DNA of 64,000 nt from NCBI GenBank assembly GCA_012518675.1, contig JAAYRR010000115.1, positions 7,866 through 71,865 on the forward strand, in the 5' to 3' direction. Position 1 is the stretch's first letter. Each line of letters opens with the position of its first letter. The DNA is from Bacillota bacterium. Lineage in GTDB: Bacteria > Bacillota > Dethiobacteria > DTU022 > UBA8154. Under the pieces are notes generated by a model. It ran no database searches. It worked only from the letters and a program-made list of their open reading frames with translations, and was not told the DNA's origin. The position numbers were made by a program, and so were the translations under genes. Shown here one piece after another: positions 11,112-33,714 of the stretch.

Positions 11112-12248
11112 TTAATCCGGTTTGATGGGTAAAACCAAATAGCGGTAATTTTCCCAGCTGTCTTCCCTTTCTCGGCGGTGTTGAAAAATACACGGGCCTA
11201 AAGGGCCGTTAAACTGTACTTCAACAGACTCTTCTTTCCAAATACGCAATACGTCCAGAAAAAAGCGGGAATTAATTAAAATTTCATCCAGGTCATCCCC
11301 TTCCTTGCCTGTAAGTTCTATTTCTTCCTCCATTTTGCCAATTTCAGAATTCGATCGTACCTGCAGTGTTTCTCCCCTTACCCCCAGGGCGATCATACGG
11401 TTTTCCCCCTGGGCCAGCAAAGCCGCCCTGCTAACTGTTTTTTCCAGCAGTTCCGTCGGTAATACTATCTTTGTAACAAAACCCTGGGGAAAAGCTGTCA
11501 ATAAGTCCGGATATTTATCCTCCAGTAGTCTGCTGGAAAAAACATATTGTTTATGCACGAAAATAATTTCATCCTTTTGAAAATAACAAGCCACTGTTTC
11601 CTGTGCGTCACCCAGGATCCTGGCTATTTCTCCTAAGGATTTACCGGGAATTAAGAGGCGAAAAGGTTGAAAATTACTGTTCCCGCTGAAAGATTTTTCA
11701 AAACAGGCCAGCCGGTATGTATCTGAAGACAAACAAAGAAGTTGTCCCTGTGCATCGGCTTCCAATAGAATCCCCCGGAACGAAGGTTTATTTTCATCCT
11801 GGGAAACAGCAAAAAGCACCTGTCGCAGAATATCCATAATTTCCGGCGCAGCAAAGGTTAAATTAGTCCATTGTTGCCATTCCTGTTCAGCGGTTAAATT
11901 TGGAAACTGCTCGGCATCAGTACCGTACAGGGAAAAGCAAGCTGTACCGCTTTGTATAGAAACACGCAGCTCTTTGTCATCTAAATTAATTTCTATCTCC
12001 TCAGCAGGTACCTGCCTGACAATATCAAAAAATTTTGCCGGTAAGATCACACTGCCCTGCCGTGATATTTTTGCTGGGCAATACGTTTTTAAAGTCATAT
12101 CCAAACTGCTGGTGGTTAAAAGCAAATGATCGTCTGTAGTTTCAATTTTCACACCTTGTAAAAATGCCAGCGGTGTGCGGGTGGGGATTATTTTTTCCAA
12201 GGTATTTAGATTTTCCATCAATTTATTTTTATGGAGAAGAAGCTGCAT
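11112..12248 (-). CDS. dnaN: DNA polymerase III beta sliding clamp
   Basis: 378 aa; three-domain beta-clamp architecture, in the conserved dnaA-dnaN position. Confidence 0.93.
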   Translation of the reverse strand: MQLLLHKNKLMENLNTLEKIIPTRTPLAFLQGVKIETTDDHLLLTTSSLDMTLKTYCPAKISRQGSVILPAKFFDIVRQVPAEEIEINLDDKELRVSIQSGTACFSLYGTDAEQFPNLTAEQEWQQWTNLTFAAPEIMDILRQVLFAVSQDENKPSFRGILLEADAQGQLLCLSSDTYRLACFEKSFSGNSNFQPFRLLIPGKSLGEIARILGDAQETVACYFQKDEIIFVHKQYVFSSRLLEDKYPDLLTAFPQGFVTKIVLPTELLEKTVSRAALLAQGENRMIALGVRGETLQVRSNSEIGKMEEEIELTGKEGDDLDEILINSRFFLDVLRIWKEESVEVQFNGPLGPCIFQHRREREDSWENYRYLVLPIKPD

Positions 12249-12535
12249 TTTATTTTTTTCCTCCTATTTTTTTGATAATCCCCAAATGACTACTTTATGA
12301 TTAGCATTAACTAATATTTAATAATAAATAAGTAATAGTAGTCATAAGGTTTGTGAATATGTGTATAAGTGTTTTATATCCCGGTTTTATGGCAAATGTT
12401 AGTGTGGAAAACTTGTGGATAACTTAAAAAGGTTACCCACAAAACCCACAAGTCTTAAATTTCTACAAGCAAGTGGTGAAAGTTACCCACAGTTTTAATT
12501 TTTATTAACAACCTTTCAACAGGCCTGTCCACAAC
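12249..12535. other. oriC DnaA-box cluster (dnaA-dnaN spacer)
   Basis: A perfect TTATCCACA (reverse orientation, 12414-12422) plus at least four one-mismatch boxes (TTACCCACA x2, AAACCCACA, TGTCCACAA) within 130 nt. The spacer is AT-rich. Confidence 0.75.
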
Positions 12536-13906
12536 TCAGTAGCTTAAAAGATTTTTGATTTCATTAACGTGGCGCAAGAGGCTGTCGTCCTTTTTTATAT
12601 GCGCAGAAATCTTTCTATGGGCATGCATAACAGTGGTATGATCTTTGCCCCCGAAGTCATCCCCAATTTTGGGCAGGGATAAATCTGTAAGTTCGCGGCA
12701 GAGATACATGGCAATTTGACGCGGCAGGGAAATGTTTTGTGTTCTTCTGCGGGATTTAATATCCCGGGTTGTTATTTTAAAATAAGAAGCTGTTACCGAC
12801 ATAATATGTTCTGCATTCAGGTTTTTTTGCTTGGGGGTTAGAAAATCTTTAAGTGCTTCTTCAGCCAAGGGCAGATCGATTTTTTTATTTTCCAGGGAAG
12901 CATAGGCAATAATACGAATTAGAGCTCCTTCCAGCTCCCGGATGTTATTTTCTATTTTTTGCGCAATGAAGAGCAACACATCATCTGTAAACATTATTCC
13001 TTCCAAAGAACTTTTCTTGCGTAAAATGGCAATTCTTGTTTCCAGGTCCGGGGATTGGATGTCTGTAATCAAACCCCATTCGAAACGTGAACGCAGGCGA
13101 TCTTCGAGTGTTGGTATCTCTTTGGGCGGGCGATCACTGGAAATGACAATTTGTTTGCTGTTTTCATGGAGGGCATTGAAAGTGTGAAAAAATTCCTCCT
13201 GCGTCTGTTCTTTTTTTGCTAAGAATTGGATATCATCAATTAGGAGGACATCGACATTGCGGTAGATATTGCGAAATTCTTCGGTTTTGTTGTCCCGGAT
13301 GGCGTTAATAAATTGGTTGGTGAATTTTTCTGATGAAAGGTAGTTCACTTTTTCACTGATATTGTGAGAAACAACATAATGGCCGATAGCATGCATAAGA
13401 TGGGTCTTACCCAATCCTACACCACCGTAAATAAACAGGGGATTATAAGCCTTGGAGGGGGCTTCCGCGACGGCCAAAGAAGCAGCATGGGCCAAGCGGT
13501 TGCTGCCACCGATTACAAAACTACTGAATGTATACTTAGGGTTTAGCCACTTACAAGTTACGGAAAGAGCCTTTTTGTTAGTATTTTCCGACTTTGGGGG
13601 GAGATTAACAGCTTTTAGATTATGCAAAGACGTTCTTTTTTCCTGGAAGTCAATATTCTGGGGTGTTACAAAATGTATGTAGTAGGGAGAATCGCTAATT
13701 TTTTTTAAGGCAAAGGATAGTGATTCACGGTAATGGTTTTTTAACCAATTGCGGGTAAAATCATTTGGGACTTCCACAACAATGGTACTGTCCTGTATCG
13801 CAATAAGCTTTGTTGTTTTTAACCAGGTTTCAAAACTTGGTTTACTAAGTGTTTTTTTCATTTCAGAAAGAACCGCATGCCAGATGGCAGGCAGGGAATC
13901 TTCCAT
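12536..13906 (-). CDS. dnaA: Chromosomal replication initiator DnaA
   Basis: AAA+ Walker A ([10 protein letters not shown]) and the C-terminal DnaA-box-binding domain. Start taken at the internal ATG 13906 ([12 protein letters not shown]...), preceded by GGAGGG; the longer ORF-track start would overlap the oriC palindrome. Confidence 0.95.
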
Positions 13907-14140
13907 ATAAAACCCTCCATAAATAAAGTTATTCACAAATATCTCATAGTTATCCACAAAAGTTGTGGATAACTATGAGATATGCTGCTTGTTGGTGGTT
14001 CATCAATATAATAACAGATGAAACATCTTGCTGCAATGAAAACGCCTGTGCATAACTACCTGTTTTTATCGTGTATTTCTATTTTGTTCTAAAATGATAT
14101 TAATTTATTTGTAAATTTTTTAAGGGCCGCTGGCGGGTCA
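13907..14140. other. oriC upstream of dnaA: DnaA boxes including a 19-nt perfect inverted repeat, plus an AT-rich unwinding element
   Basis: ATCTCATAGTTATCCACAA-aag-TTGTGGATAACTATGAGAT (13941-13981) contains two perfect DnaA boxes in inverted orientation. An additional TTATTCACA lies at 13929. 14041-14130 is strongly AT-rich (DUE-like). Confidence 0.75.
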
Positions 14141-14160
14141 AAAAGAGGGCCGCACTGTAG

Positions 14161-14189
14161 TTGCATGTGGGGATAAGATACGTTATAAT
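14161..14189 (+). promoter_or_regulatory. Sigma-A-type promoter for rpmH-rnpA
   Basis: TTGCAT (14161-14166), then 17 nt, then TATAAT (14184-14189). Confidence 0.5.
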
Positions 14190-14249
14190 GAATTTCAGTG
14201 TTTTACGGGTTAAAATTAACAAATTTGCCTAAAGGAAGGGTTTCAGGAG

Positions 14250-14384
14250 ATGAAAAGAACATACCAACCAAAAGTAAGAAAACGCAAGCGAAGTCATGGT
14301 TTTTTGAAAAGAATGTCCACCCCGGGAGGACGGCGAATTATTAAAAGGAGAAGAAGAAAAGCAAAAAGAAATTTGTCTGCTTAA
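14250..14384 (+). CDS. rpmH: 50S ribosomal protein L34
   Basis: Translates to [44 protein letters not shown] (44 aa), preceded by AGGAG. Below the ORF-track size cutoff. Confidence 0.95.
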
Positions 14385-14385
14385 G

Positions 14386-14775
14386 GTGATGAAAAAAGCA
14401 AAGACTGTGCAACAGCATGTCTGGCCTGAAATCGGGGCTAAAAAGATGGAAAGATTGCGTAAGAATTATCAATTTCAAAAGGTTTACCGTCAAGGCCGTT
14501 CTTTATCCACAGCTAAAACTGTTTTATATTACCGAAAAAACAGGGAGAAATATAACCGGTTGGGAATAGTTGTTAGTAAGAAGGTGGGTAAAAGTGTGGT
14601 CAGACATCGTTTAAAAAGGCTTTACAGGGAAGCAATGCGCTCTTTACAAGGCCGCATCAAGCGAACAGGATATGATTTGGTTATTATAGCCAGAAAGGGT
14701 GCCGGCAACCTTACGTATCAGGATGCGGTGCGCGACCTGCAGCGGCTGATGTTAAGAGGAAAGTTAAGCAGTTAA
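14386..14775 (+). CDS. rnpA: Ribonuclease P protein component
   Basis: Basic protein with the RnpA core ([20 protein letters not shown]...); start could also be the ATG at 14446. Confidence 0.9.
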
Positions 14776-14906
14776 ATTTTCCGGGGGCTGCAAAACAACA
14801 GGCAAACCCTAGTTTATGCAAAAATTGTGCGGCGTCTGTCAAGGATTGTCAGGATAAGGTACGCAGGAAGAGACTTTTTTCATGTGAATTTGGGGGCACC
14901 TGGAAT

Positions 14907-15122
14907 ATGAAAAAAATATTATTGTTGGTAATTGGATTTTATATTAAAGTTGTTTCCCCGTTGTTGCCTCCGCGGTGCCGCTTTTATCCTTCATGTTCCC
15001 GGTACAGTTATGAAGCTGTTAATAAATTTGGCATCAAAAAGGGAATTATTTTAAGTTTTAAAAGAATTATACGTTGTCATCCTTTTCATCCAGGCGGATA
15101 TGATCCTTTGCCTGGGGATTGA
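14907..15122 (+). CDS. yidD: Membrane protein insertion efficiency factor YidD
   Basis: 71 aa; [14 protein letters not shown]...HPGGYDP motif. Confidence 0.9.
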
Positions 15123-15158
15123 GCGGGCAGGAAGGCAGTATAATAAGGGGGAGTCGCG

Positions 15159-15995
15159 ATGATTCAAGCCCTGAGCGGGTATATTAATATAATTTTAAGC
15201 TATTTTTATAATTTAGCCAATAATAATTACGGCCTGGCGATTATTATGCTTACTATCTTGGTTAATATTATAACTTTTCCCTTAACCAAAAAACAAATGG
15301 AATCGTCCAAAAAAATGCAAGATATTCAGCCTGAATTAAAAAGGTTACAGGACAAGTATAAAAACGACAAAGAAACCTATAACAAAGTGACTATGGAATT
15401 TATGCAGAAAAACAAGGTTAACCCCCTAGGGGGCTGCCTTCCTCTTTTGATACAATTTCCCATTATGATTGCGGTATTTACACTTTTAAGGGAACCCGCT
15501 CAAATTATTGAAGCCGTAGAAGCCATGGGTAAAACATTTAACCCTAATTTTCTCTGGCTGGATTTAACAAAACAGGATCCCTATTATATTTTGCCGGTCC
15601 TGGCAGCAGCGGCGACCTTTTTTCATCAGCGAATGGTTATTACAGATCCTCAACAAAAGATGATGCTCTATATTTTTCCGGTGATGATCGCCGGTATTAG
15701 CATCAGGTTTCCGGCCGGGCTGGTGCTCTACTGGTTTACAAATTCATTATTTTCTGCTGGAAACCAACTTTTCATTTTTAGCAAGGGTAAAAAAAATAAA
15801 AATGAAGGTTTAACAAGTATTCAGGAGAAAACGTCTACCGGGGAACAGCAAACCGGTAAAGAAAAAAATTCACAAACAGGTAAGTCCGGGAAAGAGAAGA
15901 AAACAGGAAATTTAGTGGGAGAAAAAACGAAAGCCCCCAAGGTAAAGCGGAAAACTGCCAAAAGAAAGAAGAAAGGGGCGAAAAGGAAAAGATGA
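15159..15995 (+). CDS. yidC: Membrane protein insertase YidC/SpoIIIJ with a long lysine-rich C-terminal tail
   Basis: YidC/Oxa1 core (FPLTKKQMESSKKMQDIQPEL...GGCLPLLIQFPI). The last ~70 aa are highly basic (KRKTAKRKKKGAKRKR). Confidence 0.92.
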   Translation: MIQALSGYINIILSYFYNLANNNYGLAIIMLTILVNIITFPLTKKQMESSKKMQDIQPELKRLQDKYKNDKETYNKVTMEFMQKNKVNPLGGCLPLLIQFPIMIAVFTLLREPAQIIEAVEAMGKTFNPNFLWLDLTKQDPYYILPVLAAAATFFHQRMVITDPQQKMMLYIFPVMIAGISIRFPAGLVLYWFTNSLFSAGNQLFIFSKGKKNKNEGLTSIQEKTSTGEQQTGKEKNSQTGKSGKEKKTGNLVGEKTKAPKVKRKTAKRKKKGAKRKR

Positions 15996-16615
15996 CCTCC
16001 ATTGAGGTTAGCGCCAAAACAGTTGAAGAAGCTCTAGAAAAAGGGTTAAAACAGTTGGGTGTAAAAAAAGAAAATGTGCAAACTGAAATCTTAAGTGAAC
16101 CGGCCCAGGGGCTTTTTAAATTTTTGGGGTCAAAAACTGCAAAGTTAAGATTAACAGTAATTAAGGATACAGAAGAATATATTAAAGATTTTTTGGAAAA
16201 AATCGTGAATATTATCGGGGTTAACGGCCATATTAATGTTGTACCCAATGATGAGGGAAATCTGCATGTGGAAATTAAGGGTGAAGATTTAGGTGTCCTT
16301 ATTGGTAAGCGGGGAAATACATTAAATGCGCTACAATATCTTGCTAATGTTGTTCTGTACAGGCAATTTACTGCACCCAACTGCCGGGTGCTGGTAGATA
16401 TAGAAAATTATCGTTCCAAGCGTAAGAAAACATTGGAAAACCTGGCCAGAAATCTTGCACAAAAAGTTTTGCGGACAAAAAAAGAGCTTGCTTTAGAACC
16501 CATGAACCCGCAGGAAAGGCGCATTATTCATCTTACTTTAAAAAATTACCGGGATGTGGTGACCTCCAGTCAAGGGGAAGAACCTTATCGTAAAATAATA
16601 ATTTCACCACGTTGA
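15992..16615 (+). CDS. jag: Jag/KhpB-like KH+R3H RNA-binding protein
   Basis: 207 aa, overlaps the yidC stop by 4 nt; R3H region (ERRIIHLTLK) present. Confidence 0.88.
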   Translation: MTSIEVSAKTVEEALEKGLKQLGVKKENVQTEILSEPAQGLFKFLGSKTAKLRLTVIKDTEEYIKDFLEKIVNIIGVNGHINVVPNDEGNLHVEIKGEDLGVLIGKRGNTLNALQYLANVVLYRQFTAPNCRVLVDIENYRSKRKKTLENLARNLAQKVLRTKKELALEPMNPQERRIIHLTLKNYRDVVTSSQGEEPYRKIIISPR

Positions 16616-16714
16616 AATATTGCCGGGGAAATGATAGATTTTTGTCTAAAGATACAGGGAGTTCTTGGGAACTTCCTTATTTTTTATCAGGACTTTTCAA
16701 GGGGGGGTCTGCCT

Positions 16715-18136
16715 GTGGATAATGCCGCTGATACTATCGTGGCTGTTTCAACACCACCCGGTGAGGGCGGTATTGGCATTGTGCGCCTTAGCGGCAGTGA
16801 AGCTTTGAAAATTGGTTTAAAAATTTTTTCCCGCAAGCATAAACACGGGCAATCTGTTCCCTTGCGGCGCTCTTTTAAACCTGCGGCCCGCAAACTTTAT
16901 TATGGGCATATTGTAGACGATCAGGGTATTGAGCTTGATGAAGTGTTATTTAGCTTTATGCCGGGTCCCCGCTCCTATACCTGTGAGGATGTTGTTGAAA
17001 TTAATGCCCATGGCGGTGCTGTCCCTTTAAAAAATATATTGGAACTGGCCTTAAAAAAGGGGGCCCGTCTGGCTGCACCGGGTGAATTTACAAAGCGGGC
17101 CTTTTTAAACGGACGCCTGGACTTAATACAGGCGGAGAGTGTTTTAGCCCTGATCAGGGCTAAAACAGACAAGGCCCTCAAGGCGGCAATACGGAGTTTG
17201 GAAGGGGCTCTTTCGGGTGAAATTGCAAAAATACGGGCCGGGATTGCCGCCCTTTTAGCACAAATTGAAGTAGAAATAGATTTTGCACACGAGGATGCCG
17301 ATTTAGCGCCGGCAGGGGATAACCATATTGGTGAAAGCATAGAACGGCTTCTAAAAAAAATGAAAAGGTTGCTGCAAAAGAGATTTCAGGGCAGGGTTTT
17401 ACAGGAGGGGCTAAAAACAGTTATTATGGGCAGGCCCAACGTTGGCAAGTCATCCCTTTATAATTATTTAGTCCGGGAGGAACGTGCTATTGTTACAGAG
17501 ATTCCCGGCACAACAAGGGATCTTTTAAGGGAATACATTAACGTCAAAGGAATTCCCTTGCAGTTGGTTGATACTGCCGGTTTGCGCCGGGCAGGGGATG
17601 TGGTAGAAAAAATAGGCATGGATTTTTCCTGGAAAGCCATTCAAGAAGCTGATCTATTATTGTTTATGTTGGATGCTGCGCAGGAGATAACCCCAGAGGA
17701 CTATTACATTTATGAACGTATACCCCGGAATAGCGGACCGGCGGTTCTCTTTATACTGAACAAAATTGATCTGTCCAGAAAACTGTCTCCCCAAGAGGTT
17801 AAAGAAAAATTTTCTGTAAAAAACGTTTTGGAAATTTCTTTGCTACAGGGTGACGGGCTTGAAAAACTGGAGGCAGCAATCAGTAATATGGTTTTTTCCG
17901 GTGAAGCAGCTGCAGAAGAAAGTGTGCTGCTTTTAGAGGCCCGGCAGGGGGAGTTGATGCAGCAGGCCCTTATTTGTATGACAGAGGCGTGGGAAGCCTT
18001 GGCAAAGAAATTGCCCTTGGATCTGATTAGCATTGACTTACGTCAGGCGCAGCAGTTTTTAGGTGAGCTGGTCGGGGAGGAAATTGGTACAGAGGTGTTA
18101 GATCTTGTTTTTCAAAAGTTTTGCATTGGCAAGTGA
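16715..18136 (+). CDS. mnmE: tRNA modification GTPase MnmE
   Basis: GTG start after GGGGGG; DTIVAVSTPPGEGGIGIVRLSG N-terminus, G-domain GRPNVGKSSL, C-terminal CIGK. Confidence 0.93.
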   Translation: MDNAADTIVAVSTPPGEGGIGIVRLSGSEALKIGLKIFSRKHKHGQSVPLRRSFKPAARKLYYGHIVDDQGIELDEVLFSFMPGPRSYTCEDVVEINAHGGAVPLKNILELALKKGARLAAPGEFTKRAFLNGRLDLIQAESVLALIRAKTDKALKAAIRSLEGALSGEIAKIRAGIAALLAQIEVEIDFAHEDADLAPAGDNHIGESIERLLKKMKRLLQKRFQGRVLQEGLKTVIMGRPNVGKSSLYNYLVREERAIVTEIPGTTRDLLREYINVKGIPLQLVDTAGLRRAGDVVEKIGMDFSWKAIQEADLLLFMLDAAQEITPEDYYIYERIPRNSGPAVLFILNKIDLSRKLSPQEVKEKFSVKNVLEISLLQGDGLEKLEAAISNMVFSGEAAAEESVLLLEARQGELMQQALICMTEAWEALAKKLPLDLISIDLRQAQQFLGELVGEEIGTEVLDLVFQKFCIGK

Positions 18137-26192: not shown

Positions 26193-26672
26193 ATGTCATT
26201 GTATGAAATTATGTTTATCGTCCAACCTGATCGGGAAGGGGAGGCCCTGGAAGAGGCTGTTTTCAAAGTTAAAGAGGTGGTTGAAAGGGAAAACGGCGAA
26301 GTGGTTTCTCTTAAGAAATTAGGCAAAAGAAGGCTGGCCTATGAGATCAACGAACATCGCGAGGGTTCCTATATTCTGGCCCATGTGCAAGCCGGTAAGG
26401 AAGTTATCCCTGTGCTGGAACACTTTTTTAAGGTAAATGAAGGCTATTTGCGCTACATCGTGATTCGTTTGGATGAAGAAAAACAGGAACAAGCAGGTGT
26501 ATCTGCTACCGGGGAAAACATTCTCTTGGAAAAGGAAGCGGTTGAAGAATCGACTGCAGATAATGTACAGGCAGAAGTTGCCCCGGTTGAGGCCGCCCCT
26601 GTGGAAAGCACTGTTGAAAAAGAGACGGGAGCTGCGGGGGAGGCACAAAACGAAGGCCAGGGTACAGCATAG
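26193..26672 (+). CDS. rpsF: 30S ribosomal protein S6 with acidic C-terminal extension
   Basis: MSLYEIMFIVQPD...RRLAYEIN core, followed by a ~60 aa Glu/Ala-rich tail. Confidence 0.92.
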   Translation: MSLYEIMFIVQPDREGEALEEAVFKVKEVVERENGEVVSLKKLGKRRLAYEINEHREGSYILAHVQAGKEVIPVLEHFFKVNEGYLRYIVIRLDEEKQEQAGVSATGENILLEKEAVEESTADNVQAEVAPVEAAPVESTVEKETGAAGEAQNEGQGTA

Positions 26673-26719: not shown

Positions 26720-27127
26720 ATGAATTGCGTAAATTTAATCGGGCACCTGGCGCAGGATCCGGAATTACGATACACGCCCGGGGAAGGGACTGCCGTTGCC
26801 AACTTTACATTGGCGGTTAACCGCCCTTTTCTAAACCAGAAAGGGGAAAGGGAGGCAGATTTTATCAGGATAGTAACCTGGAGAAAACTTGCCGAAAGTT
26901 GTGCACGCAATCTTTCCAAGGGCAGGCAGGTGGCCGTGGAAGGACGTTTACAGATTCGTTCCTATGATGACCGGGAAGGTATCCGGCGGATAGCGGCGGA
27001 GGTTGTAGCCCGCAGTGTTCATTTTCTGGGCGGGCGCCGCGAACAAGCACCGGCTGCCCGTGACGGTCTGGATGATACTTTCATAGAGGACGGTGTGGAA
27101 ATTAAAGATGAAGATGTTCCTTTTTAG
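26720..27127 (+). CDS. ssb: Single-stranded DNA-binding protein
   Basis: OB-fold (VNLIGHLAQDPELRYTPGEGTAVANFTLAV) and acidic tip DEDVPF. Confidence 0.93.
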   Translation: MNCVNLIGHLAQDPELRYTPGEGTAVANFTLAVNRPFLNQKGEREADFIRIVTWRKLAESCARNLSKGRQVAVEGRLQIRSYDDREGIRRIAAEVVARSVHFLGGRREQAPAARDGLDDTFIEDGVEIKDEDVPF

Positions 27128-27248
27128 GTAAAAATGGTCGTTATAAAAACGACTGTTAAGGGGAACGTGGAAGGGAGGTTAAACCAGCCCTTACAGGTAG
27201 AGGCTGTTTCCAGTAGGCTGCAGCATGTGCAGTAGGGCTGTAAATAAT

Positions 27249-27476
27249 ATGCGCAGGGAAAGACGCAGAGGTAGAAGAAGAGTATGTGCGTTTTGTGTAG
27301 ATAAGGTAGATACAATCGATTATAAACAAGCCGACAAGTTGCGCCGTTTTATTACGGAAAGAGGGAAGATCTTGCCGCGACGTATTTCCGGGAACTGTGC
27401 CCGGCATCAGCGGCAACTGACTGTGGCCATCAAGCGGGCCAGGCAGATGGCTTTGTTGCCGTATACTTCAGAATAG
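27249..27476 (+). CDS. rpsR: 30S ribosomal protein S18
   Basis: [16 protein letters not shown]...[35 protein letters not shown]. Confidence 0.92.
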
Positions 27477-27479
27477 GCG

Positions 27480-27830
27480 GGGACGCCCTGCCGGAAAAGG
27501 TTAGGCGGTGTTTTTGCGGCGGGCAGCAGGGCTCGGCTACAGTCTGCGGGTGCCTGCCGGGGGGGCTCCCTTCCAGGGTCGCCCCCCGGCTGCCGACCTC
27601 TTGTCGTCAGGCCTTCCTGCGCCCCGGGCCTTGTTCGCGCCTTCATGCCGGGCGGACGATACACTTTTTCTGCCGGGCGTTCCCCGGTGTGGTTTAAGGG
27701 CAGGGGCCCAAGCCCGCCGGTGGCAGGAAAAGGATAGGCGGCGTTGTTGGCGGTGGGCTGCCGGGCGGTGGTTTTCGGTATTTAATTCCTACCGGGGGAA
27801 GGCAGGAGATCTGGTAAACGCAGCGAAATT
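27480..27830. repeat. GC-rich (~70%) non-coding island bounded by ~35-nt imperfect direct repeats
   Basis: Direct repeat 1 at 27491-27526 (CCGGAAAAGGTTAGGCGGTGTTTTTGCGGCGGGCAG) and direct repeat 2 at 27724-27760 (CAGGAAAAGGATAGGCGGCGTTGTTGGCGGTGGGCTG), about 29/33 identical. The intervening 200 nt is extremely GC-rich. ORFs here have Arg/Ala/Gly-dominated composition typical of noise. Confidence 0.6.
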
Positions 27831-27850
27831 TTAACGGGGAGGGCGCCGGT

Positions 27851-28162
27851 GTGGATGATGTAGAGCTGATTAAAAATATTCGTTTGATCGAACGCTTAAA
27901 ATGCGGCCTCCTGCAGTGGTTGGCTGATCTTTTTTTTGCCCTTCACGACAAACCGGAGCAGATGATTATAGATGCCTTAAGCAGCCTGGTTCTTTATTGT
28001 TACCTTTTAGGCAACCGGGTGGGAATTAGTTTTAACCGTCTTGATCGGGCTATTCGGGAAAAAGTGAAGACTTACCTGCAGACGGAAGAATTGCAGGAAC
28101 ATGGGATACCTGCTGCAGAGTTGGTAGATTTTTTACGTTACCGGGAAAGTTTGCGCAGTTGA
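27851..28162 (+). CDS. Hypothetical small protein (103 aa; possibly MazG-like family)
   Basis: GTG start 8 nt after GGGGAGGG; no motif recognised with confidence. It occupies the rpsR-rplI interval where Firmicutes usually carry yybS/gdpP. Confidence 0.5.
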   Translation: MDDVELIKNIRLIERLKCGLLQWLADLFFALHDKPEQMIIDALSSLVLYCYLLGNRVGISFNRLDRAIREKVKTYLQTEELQEHGIPAAELVDFLRYRESLRS

Positions 28163-28234
28163 TTTTAAGATATCTGCGCAGGCCTGTTTGCCGGCCGTAT
28201 ATTTGTCTAGTTTTAAGAAAGGGGCTGGTAAAAA

Positions 28235-28687
28235 GTGAAGGTTATTTTTTTGGAGGAGGTCCCCAACGTAGGGGAAAAAGGAGAGATTAAGGATGTAGCT
28301 GCGGGCTATGCACGCAACTATCTAATCCCGAAAGGCCTGGCCCAACGGGCTACGCCCGGTCGTCTTAAAGATTTAAAAATGCAGGCTGAAGCCAAGGCCC
28401 GGAAAACTGCCAAGGAAATTCAGGCAGCCCAGAAAATAGTGGCCAAGCTGGCAGGGAAACAAGTTAACATTAAGGTAAAAGCCGGGGAGGAAGGGCGTCT
28501 GTTTGGTTCTGTTACCTCTGCTGATATTGCCCAAGCGCTTGTGGCACAAGGTATTAAGGTGGATAAGAAAAAAATTGAACTGGGAGATTACATTAAATCC
28601 CTGGGAGACTATACAGTGCAGATTAAACTGCATCCGGAGGTAGCTGCTTCTATAAATGTAATTGTAGAAAAAGCTGAAGAGGAATAA
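28235..28687 (+). CDS. rplI: 50S ribosomal protein L9
   Basis: [32 protein letters not shown]. Confidence 0.95.
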
Positions 28688-32331: not shown

Positions 32332-33714
32332 TTGTTACCTTTGAAAATAATATTTCCTGTCCTCACCAAAATGAAAAAAAATGCCAACTTATATTTCTTG
32401 TTGGGCAGTGCGTTTGCGCTTTGGGGTATTTTAAGTTTTTACAGTGTCTGGTCTGGAACCTTTTATGCTGTAGCTGTTAACGGCTTGGAGGCCGGCCTGC
32501 TTAAAAAACAGGAGGAGCTGCCGGCAATCCTTGAGGAACTGCAGTCTAAGGCTGCAGATTATTATGACTTGCCGGTGGTTTTAGTGGAAGATGTTACCTT
32601 GGAAAAGGTTTTCCGCCCCTCTGCAGAAGCTGATGCGCAGCAGGTGACTTCCCAGTTGCGTCATCTGTTAAGCTACAAGGTTGCCGCCCAGATGGTCACT
32701 GTTAACGAACGGGATGTTTTTCCCGTAAAGACAGAAAAAGAAGTTGAAAAAGTGATCGAACTGGTCCGGGACGCATATATTACCTGCCAGGAGAATGTAT
32801 CGCTGGAAAAGGTACTCATCGGGGAAAAAATTTCTTTCAGGAGCTGTTATGTTTATCCTGAAAAACTTTATACTGCAGAAACTTTGGTTTCTTTTTTGCT
32901 CCAGGGAACAAAACGCCGGGAGGTTTACCTGGTTTCCCGGGGGGATTCCCTTTGGAAAATTGCCAGGGACAACAACTTGTCGGTAGATACCCTCAAGGAG
33001 GCCAATCCGCAACTTAATGGTGACGCCCTGCAGGAAGGTGATGAAATAAGTTTGGTCGTTGCCGAGCCGCTGGTTAATGTCACAACCGTGGAACGTTTGC
33101 ACGCTGAAGAAAGCATTCCCTTTGAAACGGAATATACCTATGATAGCAACCTCTGGCGAACACAATCCCGGGTGGTGAAAAACGGGGTTTTGGGGCAAAA
33201 GGAGGTTGTTTATCAGGTTACCAAGGAAAACGGTGTGGAAATTAAACGGGAAAAGTTGCAGGAAAACGTTCTGAAGGAACCGGAAGCACGGGTTATCGCA
33301 GCCGGGCTTTCACAGATACCGTCGCAGGGGACCGGGAGTTTTTCCTGGCCGGTGCGGGGCGGGGGGCGCATTTCTTCCGGCTACGGCTGGCGCAACGGCG
33401 GTTTTCATGCCGGTGTGGATATCGCCGCGCCAACGGGGACTCCGGTTTTGGCCGCTGACAGCGGGGTGGTAGTCTTTCAGGGCTGGGACGGGGGTTACGG
33501 CCTGTGTGTAGTTGTCAACCATGGCCAATATTGTACCCGCTATGCCCATAATTCGCGCAACCTTGTGAATACCGGACAAGCGGTTAGCAAAGGACAGGTT
33601 ATCGCCAGCATAGGTTCGACGGGGCAAAGCACGGGTTCACACCTTCATTTTGAAATTCGCAGCGGCGGCATGCATGGTTCAACGGTGAACCCCCTTAACT
33701 TTTTCCGCCCGTAA
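32332..33714 (+). CDS. LysM-domain M23 (LytM-type) metalloendopeptidase
   Basis: TTG start after GGAGGG; N-terminal TM; LysM (GDSLWKIARDNNLSVDTLKEAN); C-terminal M23 HxxxD...HLHFE. Confidence 0.85.
   Translation: MLPLKIIFPVLTKMKKNANLYFLLGSAFALWGILSFYSVWSGTFYAVAVNGLEAGLLKKQEELPAILEELQSKAADYYDLPVVLVEDVTLEKVFRPSAEADAQQVTSQLRHLLSYKVAAQMVTVNERDVFPVKTEKEVEKVIELVRDAYITCQENVSLEKVLIGEKISFRSCYVYPEKLYTAETLVSFLLQGTKRREVYLVSRGDSLWKIARDNNLSVDTLKEANPQLNGDALQEGDEISLVVAEPLVNVTTVERLHAEESIPFETEYTYDSNLWRTQSRVVKNGVLGQKEVVYQVTKENGVEIKREKLQENVLKEPEARVIAAGLSQIPSQGTGSFSWPVRGGGRISSGYGWRNGGFHAGVDIAAPTGTPVLAADSGVVVFQGWDGGYGLCVVVNHGQYCTRYAHNSRNLVNTGQAVSKGQVIASIGSTGQSTGSHLHFEIRSGGMHGSTVNPLNFFRP

Follow-up and report, generated by a model that had tools for sequence, protein, structure and literature searches.

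The stretch of DNA analysed here, a 64-kb segment of contig JAAYRR010000115.1 that we call the window, carries the gene order rpsF (26193-26672), ssb (26720-27127), rpsR (27225-27476), a GC-rich intergenic island, a MazG-like gene (27851-28162), rplI (28235-28687), lonC and dnaB. The subject of this report is the island, which holds what appears to be the eroded copy of a long imperfect hairpin followed by a further copy of one of its arms, an arrangement shared with a few other uncultured Dethiobacteria. On its 5' side lies rpsR, the last gene of rpsF-ssb-rpsR, which encodes ribosomal protein S18 (+ strand; Pfam PF01084, E = 1.5e-27) and whose TAG stop codon (27474-27476) abuts the element. 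The longest rpsR open reading frame (ORF) has an unusually Arg-rich N-terminal extension (start 27225 vs 27249), and rpsR is missing from the recorded gene calls of several of the related loci and contigs compared here, which are designated by L-numbers (L001, L004, L129), despite an intact ORF. On the 3' side, and outside the element, is the 103-aa MazG-like gene (+ strand, GTG start; PF12643, E = 2.7e-18), then rplI (+ strand) for ribosomal protein L9 (PF01281 and PF03948), lonC (TIGR02903) and dnaB. The LonC sequence of the window is of Dethiobacteria, with a top species-representative match that is 84% identical.

An earlier reading, made from the sequence only, had pointed to a non-coding GC-rich island in a context of about 48% GC, bracketed by direct repeats. 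The compositional contrast is as it described: GC amounts to 67% over 27477-27850 and 69% over 27477-27775, and reaches 0.73-0.74 in 100-nt windows, vs 47.6% for the whole window. The island is the top 200-nt GC peak of the 64 kb (0.715) and its only non-coding one, the next GC peak (33255-33548) falling within a 460-aa ORF. The same island was assembled independently in eight metagenome contigs of the window species (L001-L006, L090 and L109), biogas fermenters being among their sources; these contigs carry the same protein set and differ in the island by one single-nucleotide polymorphism and, in L003 and L006, by 14 nt duplicated in tandem after 27665. Because of this repeated independent assembly, the island is no assembly artefact, and the concern that it might be a gene broken by an assembly error is answered by the same eight contigs. 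It is also non-coding, as had been proposed. The 108-aa and 85-aa ORFs within it have no Pfam or NCBIfam match, the strain-specific indel is 14 nt long, and indels of 1, 2 and 6 nt, mostly not multiples of three, are scattered through the between-species alignment; a coding gene or pseudogene, remnants of yybS or gdpP included, is ruled out by these frame-breaking indels and the missing family match.

Anatomy of the element

The two direct repeats (27490-27516 and 27723-27749) are 85% identical over 27 nt and 82% over 44 nt, lie 233 nt apart, and share a core pattern found at just these two sites in the window vs 0 expected by chance. Shorter motifs recur inside the island, as had been remarked: GCCGGGCG has three of its five window occurrences there, and TGCCGGG four of its 32. 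The repeats do not form a simple bracket, however, and this part of the earlier description needs revision. The second repeat is the 5' arm of the hairpin once more, in direct orientation and beyond the 3' arm, and the order along the + strand is arm, tip, inverted arm, linker, arm.

The 5' arm (A1B1; 27478-27538) holds the first direct-repeat copy and pairs, in the RNAalifold consensus, with the 3' arm (27627-27686), columns 2-63 of alignment A6 pairing with columns 154-213; it is in the 3' arm that some strains carry the 14-nt duplication. Between the arms lies the hairpin tip (27539-27626), made of two adjacent stem-loops (27556-27590 and 27590-27610) and including a 16-nt inverted repeat that is 81% complementary. 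The tip is the best conserved part of the element (78-85% identical between species), and its local fold has z = -2.1 in the window and -1.7 and -2.8 in relatives. It is also the most C-rich + strand stretch of the window (C fraction 0.46 over 78 nt). A Rho-dependent terminator, considered on account of this C-rich centre, was dropped, that stretch being strongly paired. The 3' arm is followed by a linker (27687-27722) with heavy AT-to-GC change, the sister species' TTTAAAAGCAAAGGCTTAAATCC reading TTTAAGGGCAGGGGCCCAAGCCC here, and by A2B2 (27723-27775), the second direct copy of the 5' arm, which holds the second direct-repeat copy and matches the 5' arm over the 44 nt given above. The 5' arm is 70-72% identical to the reverse complement of the 3' arm over ~56 nt in two relatives (L088 and L126), and in the window the inverted match is reduced to 12/15 nt. 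With three copies of a segment, the middle one inverted, the layout is that of a small tandem inversion duplication and suggests a local inverted-plus-direct duplication by replication template switching, a process that creates, maintains and repairs hairpin stems, multi-base compensatory changes included (PMC8794818).

The remainder of the spacer (27776-27850, + strand) is a promoter-like and ribosome-binding block, 79-82% identical to that of L088, which contains TATTTAATTCC, the motif GCAGGAGAT (27802-27810), an 11-nt gap, AGCGAAAT (27822-27829) and GGGGAGGG (27836-27843). It lies 3' of the island and is common to most Dethiobacteria loci inspected, with or without the element. The motif, GCAGGA(A/G)AT followed by an 11-nt gap and AGCGAA(A)T, stands 5' of the MazG-like gene, or of rplI where the MazG-like gene is absent; it was seen by eye in L007, L008, L010-L013, L091, L095-L100 and L122-L132, and is not evident in L009. 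The spacing AGGA, 17 nt, GAAT resembles the Bacillus sigma-H promoter consensus (e.g. spoVG) and may mark a sigma-H-type promoter ahead of rplI-lonC-dnaB.

Orthologues, the lost terminator and copy number

Two further Dethiobacteria species carry collinear copies of the element with only 55-61% GC, which bears out conservation in related genomes. One is the sister species of the window (L122 and L126-L128; LonC 89% and S18 97.6% identical); the other is represented by L087, L088 and L089 (MazG-like protein 75% identical; LonC ~84%, taken from L007, which is of the same or a sister species). A tree by identity is ((window, L126), (L007/L087, L132)), then L091, then L008.

The element sits exactly at the position that the intrinsic terminator of rpsR occupies in more distant relatives, and carriers of full units have lost either the T-tract (L087/L088) or the hairpin (window and sister species) of that terminator. 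Distant Dethiobacter-type genomes (L008 and L095-L100, and L010-L013, in which the MazG-like gene is absent) have a compact spacer of ~120 nt that holds the rpsR stop codon, a terminator hairpin with its T-tract, the block TTCGGAATTTACTTCC, the GCAGGAAAT-N11-AGCGAAT motif and a ribosome-binding site. The canonical terminator is present in L008, L010-L013, L095-L100 and L132, and the rpsR stop codon of the relatives is TAA (TGA in L132, TAG in L097). In L087, L088 and L089 the terminator hairpin is kept and its T-tract is replaced by the element, the base of the long hairpin in L088 lying ~50 nt from the rpsR stop; the window and L126 have no terminator hairpin left, and their element begins 1-2 nt after the TAG stop. 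In L007 and L088 the TAA stop codon and the hairpin are followed by TTAATAG (L007 3168-3222 vs window 27470-27485), and the difference looks as though ~45 nt had been deleted between two AATA repeats, taking the hairpin away and giving rise to the new TAG stop. A + strand scan of the L126 and L088 spacers found no canonical terminator, and that of the window found one weak terminator-like site (27757-27780). The element does not itself combine a stem-loop with an immediate U-tract; because no U-tract follows, it is not a canonical intrinsic terminator. Derivation of the 5' arm from native spacer sequence was also considered, and the L132 and L091 spacers proved only weakly similar to it (scores 9-12); this argument was dropped because of the weak similarity and because the short spacer of L132, a member of the L007/L087 group, may reflect a loss of later date.

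The number of units varies among close strains, as in a variable-number tandem repeat. L087 has 2.3 units, that is, 2.0 tandem units plus a partial one (Tandem Repeats Finder, TRF: period 233, 2.0 copies, 96% matches), L088 has 1.3 units, and the four assemblies L007 and L129-L131, which are 93-97% identical to L087/L088 in flanking DNA and one of which, going by its name, seems to be a long-read metagenome-assembled genome, have 0.3 units, i.e. a single arm. Contig JBMNEM010000002.1 has just such a 0.3-unit remnant, and assembly GCA_046128275.1 is among those with the 215-nt unit. The junction in these L007-type strains fits recombination between the two arm copies. The window has 1.3 diverged units, in which TRF detects no array. 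Direct arm copies are 98% identical within L126, 88% within L088 and 82% within the window, vs 74-80% for orthologous arms between species; the copies evolve in concert, since they are more alike within a genome than between species.

Differences between the window and L126 were polarised by the third species. The island underwent 38 changes on the window lineage vs 7 on the sister lineage, compared with 161 vs 173 in the flanking genes (Fisher p = 2.5e-6). Per site, the sister-lineage island changed at 0.024 vs 0.121 at four-fold sites (p = 2e-6), and because it is thus five times slower, the element is under purifying selection in that lineage. The single-copy tip tells a similar story between L126 and L088, with 84% identity vs 55% at four-fold sites. 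On the window lineage, the rate in the island was 0.131 vs 0.113 at four-fold sites (p = 0.48), and AT-to-GC vs GC-to-AT changes numbered 19:8 in the island and 67:76 in the flanks (p = 0.035). In the window lineage the element has thus evolved at the neutral rate, with an AT-to-GC bias and released from constraint; the GC island is the outcome of this bias, which has also degraded the long-hairpin fold. The GC richness is derived in the window lineage, since orthologues have lower GC and the excess arose by substitution in place. The 14-nt duplication segregating inside the 3' arm fits relaxed constraint.

Folding, searches and neighbouring features

In both other species the unit folds into one long imperfect hairpin of ~215 nt with a branched tip. 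That of L088 has a minimum free energy (MFE) of -121.6 kcal/mol (z = -7.8 on the + strand and -6.8 on the - strand), and that of L126 (2086-2300) has an MFE of -116.2 kcal/mol (z = -4.2 and -5.8). The corresponding stretch of the window (27477-27692) reaches an MFE of -114.2 kcal/mol with z = -1.45 (+ strand): both tip stem-loops and the outer stem remain, the arms are partly re-paired locally, and the whole-island fold is no better than shuffled sequence on either strand. The consensus structure, derived from the same five sequences of three species on which it was tested, comprises 68 pairs, and 95.4% of the cells are standard pairs. Seven pairs changed on both sides, vs 4.0 +/- 1.3 in column shuffles (13/500 shuffles reach 7) and 0-3 when the partners are slid. 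As evidence of conserved pairing these compensatory changes are suggestive, coming as they do from three lineages and from a structure built on the same sequences. The earlier suggestion of a structured RNA is therefore borne out in part: the long hairpins of the relatives, the seven double-changed pairs and the constraint in the sister species speak for it, whereas the window fold is at chance and no strand signal is seen.

No known RNA family accounts for the element, in line with the earlier statement that nothing catalogued lies here. Covariance-model searches against Rfam gave nothing above noise at E <= 10 for the island region (27100-28300) and nothing at E <= 1 for L088 and L127, and ARAGORN found no tRNA or tmRNA in the window. 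A second copy was not found in the 64 kb by BLAST, by the core pattern or by a covariance model of the tip run with filters off; the tip model found no copy beyond this locus in 94 related loci (747 kb), and an inverted-repeat scan of the window showed no other GC-rich hairpin family. A metagenome scan with a 20-base core pattern gave 21 matches, namely the same locus of the same species and 20 chance matches in high-GC contigs, and neither a scan of viral contigs nor BLAST against plasmids and phages found a copy. The single-locus status thus covers the window, the related loci and the collections searched; a low-copy repeat in complete carrier genomes is possible. For the idea that the repeats are ordinary REP-like elements, this leaves the long palindromic hairpin shape of the relatives on one side and the lack of any other copy in the 64 kb and the collections searched on the other. 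The element junctions were inspected and show no short target-site duplication, the only flanking direct repeat being the 50-75 nt arm copy. The sole Rfam match above the gathering threshold in the window is a T-box leader at 753-994 on the - strand (99.5 bits vs a threshold of 93).

The gene 3' of the island has a history of its own, the MazG-like gene having been lost repeatedly within the clade. In the sister species (L122/L126) it is missing altogether (L126 ~2455-2470), the endpoints of the deletion being, it seems, a pair of GCCGG repeats (27845-27849 and 28190-28194 by window numbering), and the element is retained; in L007/L129 it is truncated (L007 3363-3446), the L007-type strains having a 262-nt internal deletion, and L132 has a remnant (~2340-2440) that was read by eye and has no tblastn match. 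The sequence-only reading had taken yybS/gdpP to be the usual content of the interval, which is right for other Bacillota: L019 has rpsR, the MazG-like gene, DUF2232 (YybS), GdpP and rplI, and L014 has the MazG-like gene, DUF2232 and rplI without GdpP. Where present, however, DUF2232 and GdpP sit 3' of the MazG-like gene and not at the island position. A further contig, L009, from a Dethiobacteria-related metagenome-assembled genome labelled Syntrophomonadaceae (CSSed11_109), begins 245 nt 5' of rplI and is GC-rich at its start (1-245); this sequence has no similarity to the element, and the contig break may hint at another repeat or hard-to-assemble spacer there.

The window also includes the chromosomal replication origin region (12414-16722), in which dnaA (12536-13957, - strand) and dnaN (11112-12248, - strand) diverge from rnpA (14386-14775, + strand), yidC, mnmE, parA and parB. 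It contains five perfect DnaA boxes (TTATCCACA) vs 0.48 expected by chance, including a pair arranged as a perfect 21-nt inverted repeat (13939-13983). The island lies ~13.5 kb from this region, on the strand common to all nearby genes.

Interpretation and comparison with known systems

The reading that we favour, to which we give an even chance, is that the island is a non-coding element of this one locus in a few uncultured Dethiobacteria, a long hairpin with a repeated arm that replaces the rpsR terminator, is constrained in the sister species and is decaying in the window. RNA polymerase reading out of rpsR would transcribe the element; its long double-stranded stem would then form a 3'-end, stabilising or RNase III-type (double-strand-specific) processing structure, and the hairpin would separate the rpsF-ssb-rpsR message from that of rplI-lonC-dnaB. 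In place of the terminator that was lost, the hairpin probably marks the 3' end of an RNA or a site of RNA processing. Several points weigh against this account. The RNA-level function is wholly of our own inferring, and the hairpin, having no U-tract after it, is not a canonical terminator. The covariation term of RNAalifold is slightly unfavourable (+0.48 and +0.64), and there is no strand signal for a + strand RNA, both strands of the element folding equally well in the relatives, as expected of Watson-Crick complementarity at the DNA level. The comparison covers three species only, and the structure comes from the very sequences used to test it. The 2.3-unit allele of L087 may be misassembled, being a 233-nt tandem repeat in a short-read metagenome. 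The element has been lost in the L007-type strains and is therefore dispensable there; and L132, which groups with the L007/L087 species, is without the element and has a single short spacer behind an intact terminator, a state that reflects either another loss or a more complicated history or older state.

A serious rival, which we consider somewhat improbable, is that the element is a functionless DNA quasi-palindrome with a direct repeat, produced by template switching, whose arms are kept alike by gene conversion or further switching and whose compensatory changes are by-products. The equal folding of both strands, the concerted evolution of the direct repeats, the loss in L007-type strains without obvious harm and the neutral decay in the window species would all be expected of such a sequence, and template switching can give rise to multi-base compensatory changes (PMC8794818). 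Its main difficulty is the tip, the best conserved part: because the tip is single-copy, conversion between arms cannot explain its conservation relative to four-fold sites. The slow change of the whole island on the sister lineage is likewise hard to reconcile with absence of function. A mobile origin would account for other features. A miniature palindrome of the REPIN, ERIC or MITE (miniature inverted-repeat transposable element) kind, inserted in the T-tract of the ancestral rpsR terminator and with its other copies outside the searched sequence, would be a long imperfect intergenic palindrome beside a stop codon, as REPINs are; the insertion point is the terminator T-tract, and three assemblies (L089, L090 and L109) break at the repeat. 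We nevertheless think it unlikely, given that no second copy was found in the window, the 94 loci or the metagenome, viral, plasmid and phage collections, that the window has no GC-rich hairpin family elsewhere, and that an arm copy of 50-75 nt takes the place of a short target-site duplication.

Two further proposals retain an RNA function and differ from the favoured 3'-end hairpin in what the RNA would do. The element could be a transcription attenuator, in which two partners compete for the 3' arm, namely the upstream arm, giving the long hairpin, and the downstream copy, whose end lies beside the U-rich UAUUUAAUU, the outcome setting the read-through from rpsR into rplI-lonC-dnaB; termination would fall at the TATTTAATT block. 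The alternative hairpin of 3' arm and downstream copy does form when fragments of L126 and L088 are folded in isolation (z = -1.9 for both), whose arm copies are nearly identical, the hairpin base in the window and L126 lies 1-2 nt past the rpsR stop, where a terminating ribosome would open the hairpin, and the weak terminator-like site of the window falls in this region (27757-27780). In the window, however, the alternative hairpin does not form (z = -0.17), some 5 nt separate the stem from a U-rich tail of poor quality, the hairpin base of L088 is distant from the stop codon, and neither L126 nor L088 yielded a terminator-like site in the scan, all of which gives the attenuator a low probability. 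A broader version, scarcely more probable, would make the element a rod-shaped regulatory RNA, so far undescribed, linking rpsF-ssb-rpsR to rplI-lonC-dnaB near the replication origin: its 3' arm would switch partners, perhaps as set by ribosomes terminating at the abutting rpsR stop, and so control read-through or processing, and the window species, with its switch in decay, would amount to a natural knock-down. As for the original proposals of the sequence-only reading, it is very improbable that the island is a free-standing gene for a small RNA, that it serves the MazG-like gene as a long leader, or that it is a scar left by acquired GC-rich DNA. The region is indeed GC-rich relative to the genome, has no protein homologues and lies directly 5' of the 103-aa gene. 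Against a free-standing gene stand the missing Rfam, tRNA and tmRNA matches and the lack of a promoter-like and terminator-like pair framing the island; the leader fails in that the sister species deleted the MazG-like gene and kept the element, and in that the promoter-like block lies 3' of the island; and the scar is contradicted by orthologues of lower GC and by an excess of GC that arose in place, through substitutions on the window lineage.

A GC island in a conserved ribosomal-protein locus, then, need be neither foreign DNA nor a catalogued RNA. The element is young and restricted to one lineage, with a history readable from three species: it arose where an operon terminator had stood, was held under constraint in one lineage, and in another lost that constraint and changed with a GC bias, while its own repeats let it grow and shrink. 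Should the hairpin act in RNA, nature would here offer a compact example of a different 3'-end structure taking a terminator's place, and of a functional stem built by template switching. Its practical reach is limited, the element being known in a few uncultured Dethiobacteria of digesters and similar habitats.

Among known repeats, the nearest in shape are REPINs and REP doublets, ERIC sequences and Correia-type MITEs. REPINs are described as two inverted REPs that form a long hairpin (PMC3116915, PMC3337134). Like these families, the element is a long imperfect palindrome with a hairpin of 100-200 nt, intergenic, beside a stop codon and co-oriented with the operon, with a plausible effect on mRNA ends or stability. 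Members of those families, in contrast, are scattered through a genome in tens to hundreds of copies, need a transposase (RAYT or that of an insertion sequence) and leave short target duplications, whereas the element, despite its long-hairpin palindrome, was found at one locus in the sequence searched and has an extra arm copy instead. Mycobacterial MIRUs are intergenic variable-number tandem repeats that form a multi-locus family with small overlapping ORFs. The element shares with them a position between co-directional genes and a copy number that varies among close strains (0.3, 1.3 and 2.3), and differs in that its 233-nt unit is itself a hairpin, at a single locus, without small overlapping ORFs.

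Other parallels are found in how the element seems to have been built and in where it sits. With products of template switching, such as quasi-palindromes and tandem inversion duplications, it has in common the three copies with the middle one inverted, concerted evolution, multi-base changes that keep pairing, and unstable copy number. Tandem inversion duplications of the classical bacterial sort extend over kilobases and are short-lived intermediates under selection; the element instead has arms of ~60 nt, has persisted through the divergence of three species and is under purifying selection in at least one lineage. Intercistronic hairpins for 3'-end formation or RNase III processing exist, for example in the rpsO-pnp spacer. 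The element resembles terminators and such processing hairpins in ending a ribosomal-protein operon, in replacing a canonical terminator and in having a long stem suited to RNA protection or cutting; it differs from a terminator in its great length and in having no U-tract, and as a processing hairpin it is putative. Taken together, these comparisons suggest that it is an intergenic hairpin element of the kind built by template switching, confined to a narrow lineage, with a putative function at the 3' end of the rpsR message.

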